IMG/VR virus record: IMGVR_UViG_2548877011_000015
DNA from: a virus
Taxonomy: Duplodnaviria; Heunggongvirae; Uroviricota; Caudoviricetes
Reading direction: 5' to 3' (one strand)
DNA length: 37,974 nucleotides
Shown: one piece after another, positions 1 through 13,785 of the stretch
How positions within the stretch are numbered: the first letter of the stretch is position 1
Layout of the letters: every line of letters starts with the position of its first letter
Program-made: the position numbers and the translations under genes
The notes under the pieces: generated by a model
Told to the model about the DNA's origin: nothing
The model's input: the letters and a program-made list of their open reading frames with translations, nothing else
Databases searched by the model: none

Positions 1-1053
1 TTACGGGGTAATGCCAACCGCTGCCGCCACTTTGTCGCCACTTGGCAGCGTTGCCAGAGGATTGAAACGGAGCGCCGTTTCCAGATGATCCGGTGCCAGA
101 TGAGCGTAACGCATAGTCATTTTTATATCGTGATGTCCGAGGATTTTTTGCAAAGCAAGGATATTTCCACCCGACATCATGAAATGCGCCGCAAACGTAT
201 GGCGCAGAACGTGTGTCAGTTGACCGCGAGGGAGCACGATTGACGTTTTTTCCATCACGGATAAAAATTGAAAATAGCAGTCTGTGAAGAAATTGAACCC
301 ATCAAGCGCCATGATCTCTTCATAAAGCTCTTTACTGATAGGGATGCTTCTGTTTTTCTTCCCCTTCGTTCTTACAAAGGTAATTCGGTATTTAGTCACC
401 TGTGATCGGGTAAGGTTTATTGCTTCTCGCCAGCGTGCGCCTGTGCTTAAGCATATCTTGACTACCAGTGCCAGAATTGGGTCCTGACGTTTGCAATCAG
501 CCAGCAGTTCAACAATCTGCTCATGGGTAAGCCATGCCATCTCTTTTTCTGCGATGGTGAATTTTCGCATGTTCTCCAGTGGGTTTGGATACGACCATTC
601 GCCCAGGCGGGATAGTTCGCTAAAAACACTACTTAGATAGCTTTGCTCCAGGTTAATGGTGACCGGGCTTGCTCCTTTCTTCCATTTCTCGCTGAAGTAG
701 ATCTCACCTGTCAGGCGTTTATCTCGATAGTGGGCAAACATTTTAGAGGTGAGATCGGTTGCAAGGGGATTGCCCAGAGCGTCAACCATCAACAGCAATT
801 TATCATAGACATGCTGCCCAGCGGTTAGAGATTTACCATGTAGTTTGAACCATAGCTCAACCACGTCTTTCAGTGTTCGACGATCCACTGATTCTCCCAG
901 CCAGGGCTTTGCTTCGGTTTCTTCCATCGTATGGCGCTCAAAAGCCAGAGCTTCGCCTTTGGTGGCGAATTGTTTACGCACACGACGCCCACTACGTCCG
1001 GCGGGGTAACATTCGCAAAGCCATTTTCCTGTGGTGAGTTTTCGTACTGCCAT
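1..1053 (-). CDS. int: tyrosine integrase (P2/186 type)
   Basis: ORF track 1..1131; ATG at 1051-1053 gives MAVRKLTTGKW...; C-terminal half carries the typical tyrosine recombinase region (HVLRHTFAAHFMMSGGNILALQKILGHHDIKMTMRYAHL). Stop codon is at bases 1-3. Confidence 0.9.
   Translation of the reverse strand: MAVRKLTTGKWLCECYPAGRSGRRVRKQFATKGEALAFERHTMEETEAKPWLGESVDRRTLKDVVELWFKLHGKSLTAGQHVYDKLLLMVDALGNPLATDLTSKMFAHYRDKRLTGEIYFSEKWKKGASPVTINLEQSYLSSVFSELSRLGEWSYPNPLENMRKFTIAEKEMAWLTHEQIVELLADCKRQDPILALVVKICLSTGARWREAINLTRSQVTKYRITFVRTKGKKNRSIPISKELYEEIMALDGFNFFTDCYFQFLSVMEKTSIVLPRGQLTHVLRHTFAAHFMMSGGNILALQKILGHHDIKMTMRYAHLAPDHLETALRFNPLATLPSGDKVAAAVGITP
20..41. repeat. candidate attL core (direct repeat gctgccgccaCtttgtcgcca)
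   Basis: 21/22 identical to 35121..35142; lies inside the 3' end of int, as expected when the att core overlaps the integrase C-terminus. Confidence 0.5.
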
Positions 1054-1239
1054 AAAAAATGCCCTCCAATAGAGAGCATTTTTACTGTATGTATAACCAG
1101 TGTCAATGTATGAAATCCTGCGACCATACATCTCACTGAAGCCATAATGAAGTTGGCTATTTTTTGCTATGTGAGTATGTGACTTTTGCGGTTAGCCTGC
1201 GGCTCATTGTTATATTAGGCGCAGATATAAAAGCAAAAT

Positions 1240-1446: not shown

Positions 1447-2016
1447 TTACCTAACGTACTTAATTGTTAAACTTATAATTTTCCCAATTATTTCAACATC
1501 TTCTATCTTGCACTCGAAGGCTCTGTTTCCACCTTCAACGAAGATTCTTCCACCGGGTAAACGAGTAATGTCGCGGATTGTTATTTCGCCATCAATACTT
1601 ATTACCCATTTACCGTCACGTATATCATCAAATTCTTTATCACAAATAAATTCAGAATTGTTATCTGTGATGACAAAAGGTTTTTTAAACGTAGAGGGTA
1701 GAAATCCCTTATCAAAAATATAAAAACCGTCTTCACGCAAGGCACCATCAGATAATACATATTTAGCAACTTCCATAGTATTTGTATTACCTGAAGTTTG
1801 CTTTGAACCATGTCCGGTTGTGAGCCAATTAAGCGAGGTGCCCGTTTCAAGGGCGCACTGGATTACCCATTCTGCTGGGAATGAGTCACGCATGTAGCGT
1901 GTGGCGAGTGTACTTTTAGAGATTCCTAAATGATCGCACAACGCCTGTCGAGTTTTGAATCCATAAGCTTCTACCATGCGCTCTATAGCGCCTCGTCCGC
2001 CTTTCTCCAAATTCAT
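1447..2016 (-). CDS. cI: CI-like immunity repressor (186 CI-like)
   Basis: ~190 aa, position and orientation between int and the apl/cII early operon; N-terminal HTH-like segment (TRQALCDHLGISKSTLATRYMRD). ATG at 2014-2016 preceded by GGAG; GTG at 2022 is an alternative start. Confidence 0.7.
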   Translation of the reverse strand: MNLEKGGRGAIERMVEAYGFKTRQALCDHLGISKSTLATRYMRDSFPAEWVIQCALETGTSLNWLTTGHGSKQTSGNTNTMEVAKYVLSDGALREDGFYIFDKGFLPSTFKKPFVITDNNSEFICDKEFDDIRDGKWVISIDGEITIRDITRLPGGRIFVEGGNRAFECKIEDVEIIGKIISLTIKYVR

Positions 2017-2022
2017 GGTCAC

Positions 2023-5624: not shown

Positions 5625-7996
5625 TGAACTACAGCTATTCCTGGAATGCTGAGAAAAAAGCAATCAATCCTTACGTAGAGACAGAAGAGCAATCTTCAGT
5701 TTCTGCGCTTTCAAACCTGATCGCTCTGTACGCTGCCGATAACGAGCAGGAACAGCTGCGCCGCGAGGCACTGAGTGATCAGGTCTGGGAGCGTTATTTC
5801 TTTAATGAATCCCGTGATCCTGTCCAGCGCGAAATGGAGCAGGATAAGCTCATTAGTCGGGCAAAGCTGGCGCATGAGCAGCAGCGTTTTAATCCAGATA
5901 TGGTCATTCTGGCGGACGTCAATGCCCAGCCTTCCCATATCAGCAAGCCGCTGATGCAACGTATTGAATACTTCAGCAGCCTGGGCAGGCCAAAGGCTTA
6001 TTCCCGCTATTTGCGTGAGACGATTAAGCCATGTCTGGAACGGCTGGAGCATGTACGCGACTGTCAGCTATCCACTTCTTTTCGCTTTATGGCAAGCCAT
6101 GAAGGGCTGGACGGCCTGCTGATCCTGCCTGAAATGAGTCAGGATCAGGTGAAACGCCTGTCCACCCTGGTAGCTGCGCATATGAGCATGTGCCTTGATG
6201 CAGCTTGTGGCGATTTGTATGTCACCGATGACGTTAAGCCAGAAGAAATCCGCAAAACATGGGAAAAGGTGGCAGCGGAAACCCTGCATCTGGATGTCAT
6301 CCCGCCTGCGTTTGAGCAACTCCGCCGGAAAAGAAACCGCCGTAAACCCGTGCCCTATGAACTCATTCCGGGTTCGCTGGCGCGTATGTTGTGCGCTGAC
6401 TGGTGGTACCGGAAATTATGGAAGATGCGTTGCGAATGGCGGGAAGAGCAGTTGCGTGCTGTCTGCCTGGTCAGCAAAAAAGCATCTCCCTATGTCAGCT
6501 ATGAAGCCGTGATGCATAAACGTGAGCAGCGCCGTAAGTCGCTGGAGTTTTTTCGTTCTCATGAACTGGTGAACGAAGACGGCGACACGCTGGACATGGA
6601 GGATGTGGTAAACGCCAGCAGCAGCAACCCTGCGCATCGCCGCAATGAGATGATGGCCTGTGTTAAAGGCCTGGAGCTTATCGCGGAAATGCGCGGTGAC
6701 TGCGCCGTTTTCTACACCATCACCTGTCCGTCACGTTTCCATTCCACGCTAAATAATGGCAGGCCCAACCCAACTTGGACAAATGCGACGGTAAGACAAA
6801 GCAGTGATTATCTGGTCGGCATGTTTGCTGCATTTCGTAAGGCGATGCACAAAGCCGGATTGCGGTGGTATGGCGTGCGGGTGGCTGAGCCGCATCATGA
6901 CGGTACAGTTCACTGGCACCTGTTGTGTTTTATGCGCAAAAAAGACCGCCGCGCCATCACTGCATTACTGCGTAAGTTTGCCATCCGTGAAGACCGCGAG
7001 GAACTGGGCAATAACACTGGGCCGCGCTTTAAGTCTGAGTTGATTAACCCGCGCAAAGGTACGCCAACAAGCTACATCGCGAAATACATCAGTAAGAACA
7101 TTGACGGGCGTGGTCTGGCTGGCGAGATCAGCAAGGAAACGGGGAAATCCCTGCGTGATAATGCTGAATACGTTAATGCCTGGGCGTCTCTGCATCGTGT
7201 TCAGCAATTCCGCTTCTTTGGCATTCCGGGGCGTCAGGCTTACCGTGAACTGCGATTGCTGGCTGGTCAGGCGGCAAGGCAACAGGGGGACAAAAAAGCA
7301 GGTGCGCGGGTACTGGATAACCCGCGCCTTGATGCCATCCTGGCTGCTGCTGATGCTGGTTGTTTTGCTACCTACATCATGAAGCAGGGCGGCGTACTGG
7401 TTCCCCGCAAATATCACCTCATCAGAACCGCTTATGAAATCAACGAAGAGCCGACCGCCTATGGCGATCACGGCATTCGTATTTATGGCATCTGGTCACC
7501 TATTGCAGAGGGCAAGATCTGCACTCATGCCGTGAAGTGGAAAATGGTTCGTAAGGCCGTTGATGTTCAGGAGGCGGCAGCCGACCAGGGCGCTTGCGCC
7601 CCTTGGACTCGTGGCAATAACTGTCCCCTTGCTGAAAATTTGAACCAACAGGAGAAAGATAAATCAGCTGATGGGGACCCCAGAACGGACATTACCAGCA
7701 TGGATGACAAGGAGTTGCACGATTACCTGCACAGTATGAACAAAAAAGAGCGCCGGGAACTGGCTGCAAGGGTACGCCTGGTGAAACCGAAACGGCGTAA
7801 AGACTACAAACAGCAAATTACAGACCATCAGAGACTGCAGCTCGTCTATGAGCTGAAGTCCAGAGGATTTGATGGTAGCGAGAAAGAGGTCGATTTACTC
7901 CTTCGCGGCGGCAGTATTCCGTCAGGAGCAGGCCTGCGTATCTTCTATCGGAACCAGCGTTTGCAAGAAGATGATCAGTGGCGGAACCTGTATTAA
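5624..7996 (+). CDS. A: replication initiation protein A (rolling-circle nickase, P2 gpA-like)
   Basis: 790 aa from ATG at 5624 (TAATG overlap with upstream gene); size and position of P2/186 gene A; contains the paired-tyrosine region YIAKYISK. Confidence 0.85.
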
Positions 7997-8090
7997 TTTC
8001 GCGGGTTAACAATTCGTGCTCTTAATAATACCAGGCATATCAGGCTGATGAACGTAAAAAAACGTTTTACATCAGTAAGATTATTATACA

Positions 8091-8106
8091 CTGTAAATAT
8101 AAACAG
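8091..8106. promoter_or_regulatory. LexA (SOS) box CTGT-N8-ACAG
   Basis: ctgtaaatataaacag is a perfect CTGT-N8-ACAG match with AT-rich spacer, ~45 bp upstream of the tum-like ORF start. Confidence 0.7.
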
Positions 8107-8149
8107 TAGTTATACATACAGTATTGCGTGTGGTGTCATAGGAGGAAAG

Positions 8150-8338
8150 ATGCAGGACTATTTTTTGGAGTCTTTGAAGCTCCAGCGCATTGATTTTTTT
8201 CTTAAGCTTGTAGCGGCTAGTGAGTGTAGTGATGAAGAGAAGGGGCTGGCTCTGCAGTGGGTTTCTGAATTGACTGATGAACTCATGGCAAAAATCAGAA
8301 CCCACGAATACAACCGCTCAATGGATGTCATCAGCTGA
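8150..8338 (+). CDS. Tum-like SOS-inducible protein, N-terminal ORF (62 aa)
   Basis: ATG at 8150 with AGGAGGA SD; directly downstream of the LexA box, in the position of 186 tum. Confidence 0.45.
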   Translation: MQDYFLESLKLQRIDFFLKLVAASECSDEEKGLALQWVSELTDELMAKIRTHEYNRSMDVIS

Positions 8339-8348
8339 GGTGACTTTT

Positions 8349-8582
8349 ATGCGCATTGAAATAATGATCGATAAAGAGCAGAAGATTAGCCAGTCTACCC
8401 TGGACGCCCTTGAATCCGAGCTTTACCGCAATCTGCGCCCCCTGTATCCCAAAACGGTAATTCGTATCCGTAAAGGTAGCTCTAACGGTGTGGAACTGAC
8501 CGGACTGCAACTGGATGAAGAAAGAAAACAAGTGATGAAAATTATGCAGAAGGTGTGGGAAGACGACAGCTGGCTGCATTAA
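8349..8582 (+). CDS. DinI-family protein
   Basis: 77 aa MRIEIMIDKEQKISQSTLDALESELYRNLRPLYPKTVIRIRKGSSNGVELTGL...WEDDSWL is collinear with E. coli DinI (MRIEV...); GAGGTG SD upstream. Confidence 0.8.
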   Translation: MRIEIMIDKEQKISQSTLDALESELYRNLRPLYPKTVIRIRKGSSNGVELTGLQLDEERKQVMKIMQKVWEDDSWLH

Positions 8583-8590
8583 GAAACGTT

Positions 8591-8620
8591 GCCCCCAAGA
8601 GGATTTATCCTGTTGGGGGG
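8591..8620 (+). terminator. stem-loop after DinI-like gene (terminator candidate)
   Basis: gcccccaagaggat tt atcctgttggggg imperfect palindrome immediately after the stop, followed by a weak T stretch (agtttggg). Confidence 0.4.
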
Positions 8621-9070: not shown

Positions 9071-9937
9071 ATGCAAAGAATTATTCCTGATAAAAATTGG
9101 TGGGAAAAAGAGCGTATTAATCGTAAAGCATCATCAATATGCCCATATGCTAGTTCATACAGATGTCCTCGATACTATCAGAGTGTAGTTTTGCTCTCAA
9201 GCATCAATGTGATAGCTGGTATGGCAACTAGGAAAGAAAAAGAGTTGGGTGAATTTTGGGAAAGAACCACTTTCTCATCTTTATGTGATGAAGAAGTCCC
9301 TACAGTTACTACAAAAGAATATGGCGGCCTTGCATCAGTTAGTAATTTTTGCCCAGAAATATCATTTAGATATTTACACTACTACGCCGATTATATGTGT
9401 AAATATGTTGATGAGATAGATCAGGACACTGGCAGGCGTATTGCGGAAAAAGATAATTTAGAAAATGATTGGAAATATACATGGATGTCAGTCAATCCTA
9501 AATTTTATTTAGATTGCGATGTTTTTGAAAGTGTCAAAAATTTCAATGAAGAATTGGCTAGTGATTACTTAAAAAGATTGCACCCAAATATCGTTCAGCA
9601 AATAGATAGAATGAATAATTGCTTGGATAATAATGATCCGGCAGGTGCACTGCACGCAGCCTCTAATATTTTAGAAACTATGGCTAAGGAAATCACTCAA
9701 AACCCGAATGTGGCAAATGAGTCATTGGGTGGTTTTTTTAAACAGTTCGAAAAAATGTCAAAATTACCTAAGAATCTTATTGATGCTGTTAAAGATATTT
9801 ATGATTTACGCAACAAATTACCTACTGCTGGACACGGAAGCTTGAACAAGCCTGAATTGACTATGGTAGAAGCTATAACTATTGCGGCAATGACAAAGGC
9901 GATTTTAGAAATTGAATATCGAAGCAAAGCCATCTAA
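9071..9937 (+). CDS. hypothetical protein (288 aa), accessory island; possible Abi-like
   Basis: ATG at 9071; low-GC; N-terminal Cys cluster CPYASSYRCPRYY; C-terminal LRNKLPTAGHGS (R-N...G-H-G) reminiscent of Abi_C/HEPN-type motifs; occupies the P2 tin/old hotspot between the replication module and cos. Confidence 0.5.
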   Translation: MQRIIPDKNWWEKERINRKASSICPYASSYRCPRYYQSVVLLSSINVIAGMATRKEKELGEFWERTTFSSLCDEEVPTVTTKEYGGLASVSNFCPEISFRYLHYYADYMCKYVDEIDQDTGRRIAEKDNLENDWKYTWMSVNPKFYLDCDVFESVKNFNEELASDYLKRLHPNIVQQIDRMNNCLDNNDPAGALHAASNILETMAKEITQNPNVANESLGGFFKQFEKMSKLPKNLIDAVKDIYDLRNKLPTAGHGSLNKPELTMVEAITIAAMTKAILEIEYRSKAI

Positions 9938-10186: not shown

Positions 10187-10840
10187 TCATTTCGATGATT
10201 GATCCAGATGTGTATATAACCATTGAAAGAGTTTTCTAATTTTTGTGATAGTATCTTTTAAATAATTTAAGGAGATTATTATATTATTTTCATTGTTTAA
10301 TGAAAGAGTAGGTGTTTTATCAATGATATTTTTTAAGGCTACAGCTGTGCTCATTTTTTTAATGTCTCCATTAGCATGAACTATGCAATTCCTTACTTTG
10401 TTAAACTCTGTCATGAATTGCCACTCTTGTGACAGGCCAAAGTTTATATCCATTAATTTTGTTAAATATCTTTTTGCTTTGTGGATGCCATCACCATTAA
10501 AATCGGTTACTGATATATTGGTGTTTACAATCCTTTGACATATATTGCAATAGTCGTTTAGGTTGTGCTCTAAGCATGAGTATAAAGATACCAAAGCAGA
10601 TTTATTAAAAATATTTGGTTGTATGTTAACTAAGAAATCATATTGCTCTGAATAATAGTCTTCTAAGTAATTAATATAATCGTCAGGAGCATTCTTTTTT
10701 TCATCTTCATATGCTTTTTTTAATTCCGCTAAGTCAACTCTGTTTTGGCCGCCTGCTCCTAGGATATATTTTTCGAAATCATCAATCTGCGCTTCAAGTG
10801 AATATCTTGATAGCTGTGCGAAAAGTTTGTATTTACTCAT
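10187..10840 (-). CDS. hypothetical protein (217 aa) with HEPN-like Rx4H motif
   Basis: ATG at 10838-10840; low-GC; VRNCIVHANG matches the R-x4-H HEPN signature near the C-terminal third; accessory hotspot location. Confidence 0.5.
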   Translation of the reverse strand: MSKYKLFAQLSRYSLEAQIDDFEKYILGAGGQNRVDLAELKKAYEDEKKNAPDDYINYLEDYYSEQYDFLVNIQPNIFNKSALVSLYSCLEHNLNDYCNICQRIVNTNISVTDFNGDGIHKAKRYLTKLMDINFGLSQEWQFMTEFNKVRNCIVHANGDIKKMSTAVALKNIIDKTPTLSLNNENNIIISLNYLKDTITKIRKLFQWLYTHLDQSSK

Positions 10841-11270: not shown

Positions 11271-12920
11271 ATGTTAGTCAAGAAAAATAAAAATTATAGT
11301 TTATATTTTTTAATTACAAATAATCAACAGATATCTGATTCTGGTAATTATATAAAAATAGTCCCATCAAGAAGCGATTGGAATGATTTTGGATATTTGA
11401 GTAGAGTCGAAATATCTATTTTTAATAAAAAAGAGTGTAAGGATATAATTTCACTGAATGGTTATATTGGTTTTTTGAATTCAGAGGAGGAACGAAATGG
11501 AAAAGCAGAACTGATAAGGCGAGTGAAGAAAAAGGAAGAATCTAATTTAAAGGATGAGGGGTTTAATGATTATTTTGTCATGCTTCAGGATATGAATAAT
11601 TATCGAAGACTAGTAAGATTTTTTGGGGTGAATGAATCCAAATATATATTAAATTTCATTAATGATGTTGTTTCTAAGAAAAGTGACGCTAGTGCAGAGA
11701 ATTTGAGGAAAAAAGCAATCTCTTCTGATATCTTTAATAAATCTTTCATTAGAGAGTCTGAGTCGTATTTTACTTTCAAAAATGCAGGAACAGTTCTTTC
11801 CGGTATTCAATATGAGGAGTTGGGTAATTTATCACAGCACATCAAGATTAGCTATTCGAATAAAGTTAATGAAGAAGATGTATCTTATGTTTTTAATTTT
11901 GATCACGAGCATGATTTACCAAAAAGAATTTCCATAATTATAGGCGAGAATGGTGTAGGAAAAAGCCAAACGCTTAGAGAAATCGCATTGGCTGCGATTA
12001 AAGGAAAGGATAATTTGGTGGCTGTAGTTGATTCTAACGGTGTGAGCATTGAAGAACGAATTCAAATTAGTAGGCTCATTGCTTTTTCTCCAACAAATGA
12101 AAGTAAGTGTTCATTTCCAACCGATAAAAGAATAAAATCATTGATATGGTACAAAAGATTGACTTTAAATCGTGAATCAAAATCCAAATTAAACTTGAAT
12201 GATTTAATAGTGCAACTAGCGAGGAGTAACGACGCTATCGGCTATAATCAAAGGTGGAATATATTTGTTGATGCACTGAGTGTTCTAAATAGTAACAACG
12301 ATTTAGTAATCAAATGTAGCGGTGAAAATTCACCATTTGTTAAATTAAATGAGCTTAATTCTCGAGGCGAAGAATCCAGACTATCATTATATTCTGAAAT
12401 TATTCTCTCTGGCGAGCCTTTGAGGCTTGTTGAAAATAAATGTTACCCTTTGAGTAGTGGGGAAATATCGTTTATTAAGTTTTGTGTACAAGTCTGTTTG
12501 TATATTGAGAATGGGACTCTTCTATTAATAGATGAGCCAGAAACACATCTCCATCCTTCATTTATTAATAAATTTATGGCATTGCTTGATAATTTATTAG
12601 AAAAGACAGGCTCTTCAGCTATCATAGCAACGCATTCGGTTTATCTTGTTCGGGAGGTTTTTAAGGAGCAAGTGACAATACTCAGAAGACGAGATGATGG
12701 GGTAATTGTTAGCGAAAAACCGAGATTGAGTACTTTTGGGGCGAATATAGGAAATATCTCATATTTTGTTTTCGGTGAGAGTGAACCAACTCAAATTTTA
12801 AATAAAGTAAAAAATAATATAATTGCAAAGAATATGTCTTGGGATGATGTTGAATCTAAATATAGCGAGGACTTATCACTTAATGTATTAACTGCGTTGA
12901 GAAATGAAATAGGTAATTGA
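11271..12920 (+). CDS. ABC/SMC-like ATPase with N-terminal extension (Septu PtuA-like)
   Basis: 549 aa; Walker A GENGVGKS (~aa 225), Walker B LLLIDEPETHLHP (~aa 417), H-loop ATHS; ~215-aa N-terminal domain of unknown type; GAGGGT SD; low-GC; stop is 1 nt before the next gene's start. Confidence 0.7.
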   Translation: MLVKKNKNYSLYFLITNNQQISDSGNYIKIVPSRSDWNDFGYLSRVEISIFNKKECKDIISLNGYIGFLNSEEERNGKAELIRRVKKKEESNLKDEGFNDYFVMLQDMNNYRRLVRFFGVNESKYILNFINDVVSKKSDASAENLRKKAISSDIFNKSFIRESESYFTFKNAGTVLSGIQYEELGNLSQHIKISYSNKVNEEDVSYVFNFDHEHDLPKRISIIIGENGVGKSQTLREIALAAIKGKDNLVAVVDSNGVSIEERIQISRLIAFSPTNESKCSFPTDKRIKSLIWYKRLTLNRESKSKLNLNDLIVQLARSNDAIGYNQRWNIFVDALSVLNSNNDLVIKCSGENSPFVKLNELNSRGEESRLSLYSEIILSGEPLRLVENKCYPLSSGEISFIKFCVQVCLYIENGTLLLIDEPETHLHPSFINKFMALLDNLLEKTGSSAIIATHSVYLVREVFKEQVTILRRRDDGVIVSEKPRLSTFGANIGNISYFVFGESEPTQILNKVKNNIIAKNMSWDDVESKYSEDLSLNVLTALRNEIGN

Positions 12921-12921
12921 A

Positions 12922-13785
12922 ATGAATAAATTAAAAAGACCTGTTTTTAAAGATTATTCTGCATTTAAAAAACTATCTGCAAATAAGAGATTAAAACATC
13001 ATTCTGTTCTGAATGGACAGGATACATTTATACTTAATGCATATAGATCGTACATAAAGAATAAAGGATATCTTAATGTCAATTCTTGTGGCGTATTGAG
13101 TAACAATATTGCTGAAGCTTTGAAATATTATTATAACAATCCCGCAAAGTGTTTATCTATAATTGATGATATAAGAGCAGCTAATTCTAACTCTCTATGT
13201 CCAATGTGTGGTTCAATGCATAGCGGGACTTTGGATCATGTTTTACCCAAGGAAAACTATCCAGAATTTTCTTTATTCACTAAGAATTTGGTTCCTGCTT
13301 GCAAATGTAATACTTTCAAAAGTACTACTATAGCTAATTCTGCAGGCCATCGGATGCTGCATCCATATTTTGATAATATATTAAAACAAAGATTAATATG
13401 TGCTAATTTTTCTAAATTAGGGCGAACACCTACAATTGATGTAAAAATCATAATTGACCCAATGTCACCAGAATATAACAATGTTAAGTATCATCTTGAT
13501 AATGTTGTTATCAAGAATAATATTAAGGGGTATTTGTCTGAACAATGGGAGTCGTTTTACTTATATCCTGAGCTTGTTATTAGAGGACTGAATAAGAGTC
13601 TTTCTACTTATAGCGATGTATATGAGTTGTTGACTCGCGAGTTGTTGCTGTTGGATGAAAAACATAAAGGTAAAAATAATTGGAATTCGGTTTTTGTAGC
13701 TGGGTTAATTCGACCTGATGTGATTAGGTGGATACTCTGTGAATTACATTTAGGTAACAGAAGTCCAGACGGTCGTCTCATATGA
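12922..13785 (+). CDS. HNH endonuclease (Septu PtuB-like)
   Basis: 287 aa; HNH core CPMCGSMHSGTLDHVLPKENYPEF...NLVPACKCN; tightly coupled to the upstream ATPase. Confidence 0.7.
   Translation: MNKLKRPVFKDYSAFKKLSANKRLKHHSVLNGQDTFILNAYRSYIKNKGYLNVNSCGVLSNNIAEALKYYYNNPAKCLSIIDDIRAANSNSLCPMCGSMHSGTLDHVLPKENYPEFSLFTKNLVPACKCNTFKSTTIANSAGHRMLHPYFDNILKQRLICANFSKLGRTPTIDVKIIIDPMSPEYNNVKYHLDNVVIKNNIKGYLSEQWESFYLYPELVIRGLNKSLSTYSDVYELLTRELLLLDEKHKGKNNWNSVFVAGLIRPDVIRWILCELHLGNRSPDGRLI

Follow-up and report, generated by a model that had tools for sequence, protein, structure and literature searches.

Does the stretch downstream of the replicase gene of a Fels-2-like prophage hold one gene or two? The question is raised by a locus in the IMG/VR virus record IMGVR_UViG_2548877011_000015, a DNA of 37,974 nucleotides (hereafter, the window) that is an E. 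coli prophage of the P2 family and of the Fels-2/186 type. A preliminary description of this locus had pointed out a LexA box ahead of two short open reading frames (ORFs), the second of them DinI-like, and had offered two readings: an SOS-inducible antirepressor arranged as two genes, or a frameshifted or recoded form of tum, the antirepressor gene of phage 186. We conclude that the region is very probably the SOS-induction operon of a Fels-2/186-like prophage, with a LexA-repressed promoter and two separate genes, tumA (ORF1) and tumB (ORF2). The module is already described and very common; judged from its sequence, it has every feature of Tum or of the TumA-TumB pair except the single fused polypeptide that is the form found in 186.

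Gene organization of the tum region

The elements that make up the module are the following.

8066-8071, plus strand: -35 hexamer TTTACA of a putative p95-like SOS promoter, at the position of the annotated -35 element of 186 p95
8089-8094, plus strand: putative -10 hexamer CACTGT, assigned by analogy, 17 nucleotides past the -35 element and within the LexA box
8089-8108, plus strand: LexA (SOS) box CACTGTAAATATAAACAGTA, matching the consensus at 17 of 20 positions, with the core CTGT-N8-ACAG at 8091-8106
8140-8145, plus strand: Shine-Dalgarno sequence AGGAGG of tumA, 4 nucleotides ahead of ATG 8150 and conserved in the aligned Fels-2-type loci
8150-8338, plus strand: tumA (ATG 8150, TGA 8336-8338), encoding 62 amino acids, a predicted CI antirepressor and homologue of the N-terminal part of Tum
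8337-8342, plus strand: Shine-Dalgarno sequence GAGGTG of tumB, read from the sequence, overlapping the tumA stop codon
8349-8582, plus strand: tumB (ATG 8349, stop codon 8580-8582), encoding a DinI-like protein of 77 amino acids

The two ORFs were described correctly as to size and as lying in different frames (8150 mod 3 = 2, 8349 mod 3 = 0). The overlap claimed for them, 8277..8338, disappears once the proper start is used: it arises only for a mechanical ORF of 101 amino acids from ATG 8277, whereas the 77-amino-acid gene starts at 8349, 10 nucleotides past the tumA stop and behind its own GAGGTG Shine-Dalgarno sequence. PGAP, in a 99.8% identical E. coli prophage, and the Fels-2 record call the same two non-overlapping genes. 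A 96-amino-acid version of ORF1 from ATG 8048 was rejected as another mechanical call; its 34 additional codons hold the promoter and the LexA box. Where 186 has a single ORF, the window has a TGA at 8336-8338, a 10-nucleotide spacer, and a change of frame.

One way in which the two frames could still yield a single product is recoding, whereby a +1 ribosome shift on a run of five A residues would lead into the 8277-8582 frame and produce a Tum-like fusion. The run noted earlier does exist (8290-8294, within the codons GCA AAA ATC), and slippage by +1 on AAA-A would bring the two frames together; no stop codon interrupts the tumB frame back to the run in the window, Fels-2, and two further loci, and Tum of 186 is indeed one protein of 146 amino acids. 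Conservation of the frame junction among homologues had been proposed as the check, and the junction is not conserved. We compared both genes in 22 species-level loci, including the window. Their relative frame is 0 in seven loci, +1 in another seven, and +2 in eight, so that all three relations are about equally frequent, whereas the spacer between the genes is 9-12 nucleotides long in every locus and always has a G-rich Shine-Dalgarno sequence inside it; tumB has its own Shine-Dalgarno sequence and ATG everywhere. Even among the seven loci with the +1 relation, three (L006-L008) carry stop codons that close the tumB frame 3-18 nucleotides upstream of its ATG. The A5 run itself consists of plain Ala-Lys-Ile codons and in many loci reads GCG AAA AT., with only four A residues. 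Furthermore, the third-position bias of variable sites in the tumA frame persists through the last 20 codons to the stop. The slippery site, conserved frame relation, and open second frame of a programmed frameshift are not shared by the homologues. Finally, no TumA-DinI fusion was seen either among the best 120 of 484 matches of a word-indexed search, all of which are 55-109 amino acids long and have no DinI domain, or among the 66 matches of an exhaustive search of 1.84 billion 50% representatives. Homologues are two separate genes everywhere, and the proposal of a frameshifted or recoded tum is refuted; variable frames, spacers of 9-12 nucleotides, interposed stop codons, and the lack of fusions therefore exclude both recoding and a broken gene for practical purposes, and the odds that we would still give to a ribosome shift are minimal.

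The broken gene deserves separate consideration, because the tum gene of Fels-2 has been published as "split by a stop codon" (PMC3121763) and the fused form exists in 186. On this account the ORFs would be the remains of a mutated 186-type gene, the upstream piece being non-functional. The comparison of 33 species-level genome loci, taken from different bacterial species in many genera of Enterobacterales, argues against decay. The length, start, Shine-Dalgarno sequence, and stop of the 62-amino-acid ORF are kept in 29 of these loci; three others differ in length, and one (L034) is disrupted. Variable sites in tumA fall mostly in third codon positions (28/17/56 for first, second, and third positions), and an identical TumA protein is encoded by 19 distinct DNA variants. 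In both subfamilies, the N-terminal part most often stands alone, and 186 still has an internal Shine-Dalgarno sequence and a GTG start codon for its DinI part. Thus, we regard decay of a fused gene as hardly credible.

What the homologues support is that the small N-terminal protein is an autonomous unit and that the DinI-like gene is an optional accessory, which may be missing, lie beside it in any frame, or be fused to it, as in 186. No DinI gene accompanies tumA in 11 of the 33 genome loci and in nine of 11 divergent viral loci. The homologues listed for the N-terminal part of 186-type Tum (e.g., L131-L136) are themselves mostly stand-alone proteins of 63-92 amino acids, some of them named "Tum protein"; these genes follow gpA, the replicase gene, and no DinI gene comes next in the loci inspected. 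Against this background, the fused 146-amino-acid Tum of 186 looks like the exception. Because 186 keeps an internal Shine-Dalgarno sequence and GTG start for the DinI part, the comparison suggests that it is the fused gene that is derived, rather than the two genes having arisen by splitting. The published wording can also be refined: the halves of the Fels-2-type locus are separated by a stop codon plus a spacer of 9-12 nucleotides of variable phase, unlike those of PSP3, where the stop is in frame.

The terminator scan flagged a small hairpin at 8327-8344 (GTCATC-AGCTGA-GGTGAC, with TTTTATG after it) that extends across the stop codon of tumA and occludes the Shine-Dalgarno sequence of tumB. 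It could couple translation of tumB to that of tumA. Its fold is no better than those of shuffled sequences (z = -1.20), and it belongs to the variant found in Fels-2 and the window, being absent from other homologues.

The LexA box and the putative SOS promoter

The perfect CTGT-N8-ACAG box reported at 8091-8106 is present exactly as noted (CTGTAAATATAAACAG). This minimal core is not significant by itself in 38 kb: one match was found where 0.46 would be expected, and at least one occurs in 38 of 100 shuffled sequences. The 20-nucleotide consensus TACTGTATATATATACAGTA, with up to three mismatches allowed, is far more discriminating, with a single match (8089-8108) where 0.01 would be expected. 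Conservation is a stronger argument for the LexA box than motif statistics. Approximately 40-95 nucleotides upstream of the ORF1 homologue, a CTG-N10-CAG box is present in 31 of the 33 genome loci, the two loci without it being a contig end and a disrupted gene, and likewise in 87 of 89 viral contigs (IMG/VR). It is kept in all nine loci in which TumA is merely 38-55% identical.

The box also lies where a LexA site should lie to control the genes. In 186, the LexA site begins with the six bases TACTGT that are annotated as the -10 element of p95, and the same columns align in the window; the LexA box of the window overlaps a putative promoter immediately 5' of tumA and is aligned with the annotated LexA site of 186 p95. 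In the -35 element, TT.AC is invariant across a 15-locus alignment that includes 186 p95 and PSP3. By analogy with 186, LexA bound at 8089-8108 would block RNA polymerase; since the box covers the -10 element, transcription would be blocked in the lysogen.

Two observations concern the details of this promoter region. Position 8089, the first base of both the putative -10 element and the 20-base-pair LexA site, is C in the window and T in Fels-2 and most homologues (CACTGT versus TACTGT), and the promoter might be weaker for it. In strain D23580, the dinI-gfoA promoter of Gifsy-1 is known to be silenced by a single change in its -10 element (PMC5322425). In addition, an element TATA(C/T)ATACAGT at 8110-8122, about 12 nucleotides 3' of the LexA box, is conserved in nearly all Fels-2-type loci and absent from 186 and PSP3. 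Its end, ACAGT at 8118-8122, is a LexA-like half-site with no CTGT partner at the right spacing. The element could belong to the 5' leader or provide a second site for protein binding.

Predicted functions of TumA and TumB

What would the two proteins do? TumB is the simpler case. It matches the Pfam DinI model (PF06183) over its entire length (profile positions 1-63 of 63) with an E value of 6.6e-23 and 81.3 bits against a cut-off of 24.2, and it matches the DinI structure 1ghh in PDB (E value 2.7e-6); its family is phrog_189. With residues 71-145 of 186 Tum, the DinI-like C-terminal half of that protein, it shares 41% identity (E value 3e-24), and the alignment starts exactly at V71, the internal GTG start of the truncated Tum. 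In the 186 record, this truncated form is annotated as "modulates SOS induction," and an AGGAGG precedes the GTG. By eye, TumB is also very similar to PSP3 TumB over its full length. DinI proper was rejected as an identification, as the protein scores 42.7 bits with NCBIfam NF007893, whose equivalog cut-off is 111. Thus, TumB is a phage DinI-like paralogue rather than DinI itself.

TumA is related to Tum more distantly. A profile of ORF1 built from 28 diverse homologues was compared by hhalign with one built from N-terminal parts of 186-type Tum, and the two families align over residues 1-46 on both sides with a probability of 96.4% and an E value of 1.3e-9. Identity between ORF1 and 186 Tum in this alignment is only about 20%, and the core common to both, as judged by eye, is C-x3-(D/E)-x2-(I/L)-A-L-x-(L/W)-(I/V)-(A/S)-(E/D)-(I/L). 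In PHROG searches, 186 Tum matches phrog_698, the ORF1 family, at 2.4e-5; ORF1 matches phrog_1993, the family of PSP3 TumA, at 0.0022; and phrog_8554 is matched by both ORF1 and 186 Tum. By remote homology, then, the upstream protein corresponds to the N-terminal, antirepressor part of Tum. The alignment of the ORF1 family with the single PSP3 TumA sequence is weak (E value 0.0039, probability 8.6%).

The repressor encoded in the same prophage fits this assignment.

1447-2022, minus strand: 186-type CI immunity repressor, the predicted target of TumA (Pfam Phage_CI_repr, 2.8e-33; Phage_CI_C, 2e-28)

This CI is of the 186 type, and the Pfam domain search reported no peptidase S24 (self-cleavage) domain in it; it therefore needs an antirepressor to be inactivated in the SOS response. 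Together with the Tum homologies and the position of the module after gpA, this supports the part of the preliminary description that saw an antirepressor/DinI pair arranged as two genes.

The mechanism that we propose is modeled on 186 and PSP3, from which LexA repression, antirepressor activity on CI, and modulation of RecA would be carried over. In the lysogen, host LexA on 8089-8108 would cover the -10 element of a sigma-70 promoter. Upon DNA damage, activated RecA would promote LexA self-cleavage, and derepression would follow. A short transcript of approximately 0.5 kb would then be made, from which two genes would be translated independently. TumA would bind the non-cleavable 186-type CI, stop it from binding its operators, and free the early lytic promoter, leading to lytic growth, while TumB, like DinI, would bind RecA filaments and tune the SOS signal.

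Several points weigh against this mechanism or parts of it. The link to Tum needed profiles because BLASTP gave no pairwise alignment of ORF1 with 186 Tum; the homology is detectable at the profile level only and spans 46 residues. The assignment of the antirepressor in PSP3 goes back to a personal communication, known second-hand through PMC3121763. The SOS promoter escaped the generic promoter scan, and its -10 hexamer CACTGT is weaker than the TACTGT of Fels-2. A hairpin downstream of tumB (8592-8619) is not a canonical terminator: it has no proper U tract, its fold is not significantly better than those of shuffled sequences (z = -1.17), and the terminator scan missed it. Lastly, identical TumA proteins occur with at least 16 types of CI, which is unexpected for a strictly cognate antirepressor-repressor pair.

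Some of these points could be turned into a different assignment, in which ORF1 encodes a small SOS-induced protein whose task is other than the inactivation of CI (for example, modulating host SOS functions, cell division, or replication) and prophage induction proceeds via something else. Besides the remoteness of the Tum homology and the company of very different CI proteins, this assignment can draw on the lack of family information: ORF1 has no Pfam or NCBIfam model, and PHROGs lists its family as of unknown function. The AlphaFold2 model of TumA is a two-helix hairpin (predicted local distance difference test score of 88.5), for which Foldseek found generic helical hairpins only in PDB and nothing at an E value of 0.001 or below; a PDB sequence search with the TumA profile gave no match. 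On the other hand, the position, LexA control, and homology of ORF1 fit the part to which antirepressor activity has been assigned in PSP3 (PMC3121763), the prophage CI without an S24 domain needs an antirepressor, and identity in the N-terminal DNA-binding domain of CI does not fall below 57% among the types found with one and the same TumA, so that a common target surface is plausible. We therefore consider a role unrelated to CI rather unlikely and retain TumA as the predicted CI antirepressor.

The association of one TumA with many CI types was seen in the 80 best viral-contig matches (L037-L116, IMG/VR). All of them encode a TumA identical to that of the window, from 19 different DNA sequences, and the CI proteins beside it form 16 clusters at 70% identity. 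Relative to the window, these contigs are 57-100% identical in the N-terminal domain of CI and 26-100% identical in its C-terminal domain, with CII and gpA at more than 93%. In loci with a more divergent TumA, the N-terminal domain of CI is also more divergent (44-78% identity; 34% in 186), a trend with overlapping ranges that is confounded by overall phage relatedness. TumA may be a broad-specificity antirepressor that recognizes the relatively conserved N-terminal DNA-binding domain of CI across immunity types, an idea that we put forward tentatively and with some doubt. If so, its action would resemble the cross-talk among Gifsy antirepressors (PMC3121763). Alternatively, the data suggest that the immunity cassette is often swapped, leaving many prophages with a mismatched TumA-CI pair.

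Known relatives and prophage context

The closest described relative is Fels-2 of Salmonella Typhimurium LT2 (NC_010463), whose genes STM2728 and STM2726.1 are the same genes with the same 10-nucleotide spacer, frame relation, LexA core, and place after gpA. DNA identity over the module is approximately 97%, the same two genes are annotated there, TumA differs by one residue (S62N), and the Fels-2 record notes its DinI gene as similar to PSP3 TumB. Fels-2 differs in its host (Salmonella instead of E. coli), in having T instead of C at 8089, and in its downstream cargo, which includes a 732-nucleotide gene, STM2726, where the window has other genes, including a candidate defence system. According to PMC3121763, which cites Bunny et al. 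2002 on this point, null mutations of lexA are lethal in lysogens of Fels-2 on account of the split tum region.

PSP3 resembles the window in having a LexA box, two genes after gpA, and a small upstream protein with a DinI homologue downstream of it. Both genes are annotated in the same place in its record, tumA with the note "similar to 5' end 186 tum; UV induction of prophage." The tum genes of both Fels-2 and PSP3 have been described as split in two, with the upstream PSP3 gene encoding the antirepressor (PMC3121763). PSP3 differs in that its tumA and tumB share one frame, with a stop codon and one codon between them, and its TumA belongs to the other subfamily, phrog_1993, so that the link to ORF1 is weak by both hhalign and PHROG. 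The PSP3 CI is 286 amino acids long; by eye, its gene (L118, 219-1079) appears to encode two tandem copies of an N-terminal helix-turn-helix, LERLMSAYGVKMQKDLADLLGI and LRRILDAYGFTMQKELGDLLGI, ahead of the C-terminal domain.

The p95-tum-orf97 operon of 186 shares with the window a LexA box over the -10 element just past gene A, homology of both protein parts, and a CI of the same type. LexA-regulated induction of 186 through p95-tum has been described (PMC7708051); Tum binds CI and stops it from binding the operator, as reported by Shearwin et al. 1998 according to PMC3121763 and PMC7708051, and Lamont 1989 is a further source on the induction of 186, as cited in the same two papers. In 186, both parts lie in a single polypeptide of 146 amino acids instead of two genes, and the DinI part is also made separately from the internal GTG start. 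Between the CI of the window and that of 186, identity is 34% for the N-terminal domain and 28% for the C-terminal one. After tumB in the window, neither a counterpart of 186 orf97 nor one of STM2726, the Fels-2 gene in that position, was seen; no direct comparison was made.

A further parallel is provided by the dinI-gfoA/gftA operons of the Gifsy prophages of Salmonella, which are LexA-repressed and in which a small antirepressor directed against a non-cleavable repressor is paired with a DinI homologue (PMC3121763). They differ in having dinI first, in belonging to lambdoid phages, and in having antirepressors about half the size of Tum; Gifsy antirepressors can also act on the repressors of other prophages (PMC3121763). 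With the chromosomal DinI of E. coli, TumB shares the Pfam domain and the match to 1ghh, but it falls below the NCBIfam DinI equivalog cut-off.

Besides CI, the following features place the module in its prophage.

1-1131, minus strand: integrase
2390-2905: CII homologue
8592-8619, plus strand: G+C-rich hairpin past the end of tumB, possibly a partial terminator, located where 186 has t95a (centroid fold, -20.6 kcal/mol)

The gpA-like replicase ORF ends at 7996, and the SOS module lies directly 3' of it; an intergenic stretch of about 150 nucleotides, containing the LexA box, leads from gpA to tumA. This order of gpA followed by the module is common to 186, Fels-2, PSP3, and the E. coli prophage copy, which adjoins rcdA/ybjJ in the E. 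coli chromosome.

Similarity to Fels-2-type phages stops at approximately 8580-8592, and the region beyond is therefore a variable hotspot. Two ORFs in this cargo, 9071-9937 (plus strand, 288 amino acids) and 10187-10840 (minus strand, 217 amino acids), have no Pfam family and are hypothetical in PGAP; the latter has a weak HEPN-like match in PADLOC (1.1e-5). Farther downstream is a two-gene candidate anti-phage defence system on the plus strand. Its first gene, 11271-12920, encodes an AAA ATPase (PADLOC PDC-M01A, 2.4e-55; PtuA-like, 1e-31), and its second, 12922-13785, matches PDC-M01B (8e-34) and is annotated by PGAP as an HNH endonuclease. Because an AAA ATPase is paired with an HNH endonuclease, the system resembles Septu.

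As a discovery the module counts for little, the split tum of Fels-2 and PSP3 having been known since the early 2000s. Its prevalence gives it some weight: it was found in 1,125 of 5,426 complete E. coli genomes, about a fifth. In the E. coli records listed, all annotated by PGAP, it appears as two genes; the tumA homologue is labeled "hypothetical protein" in these and in the phage records that carry it, with "levan regulatory domain protein" in some of the latter. Because of this labeling and the absence of an informative family model, the likely role of tumA as a switch from DNA damage to prophage induction is hidden in routine annotation. The comparative data favour a modular view in which an antirepressor is joined by a DinI-like accessory. 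The mismatch between one TumA and many CI types is the sole part of the locus that might repay experiments. If TumA does have broad specificity, Fels-2-like prophages that differ in immunity, whether co-resident or incoming, would be induced together, and the cI-apl cassette could be swapped by recombination with SOS inducibility kept.

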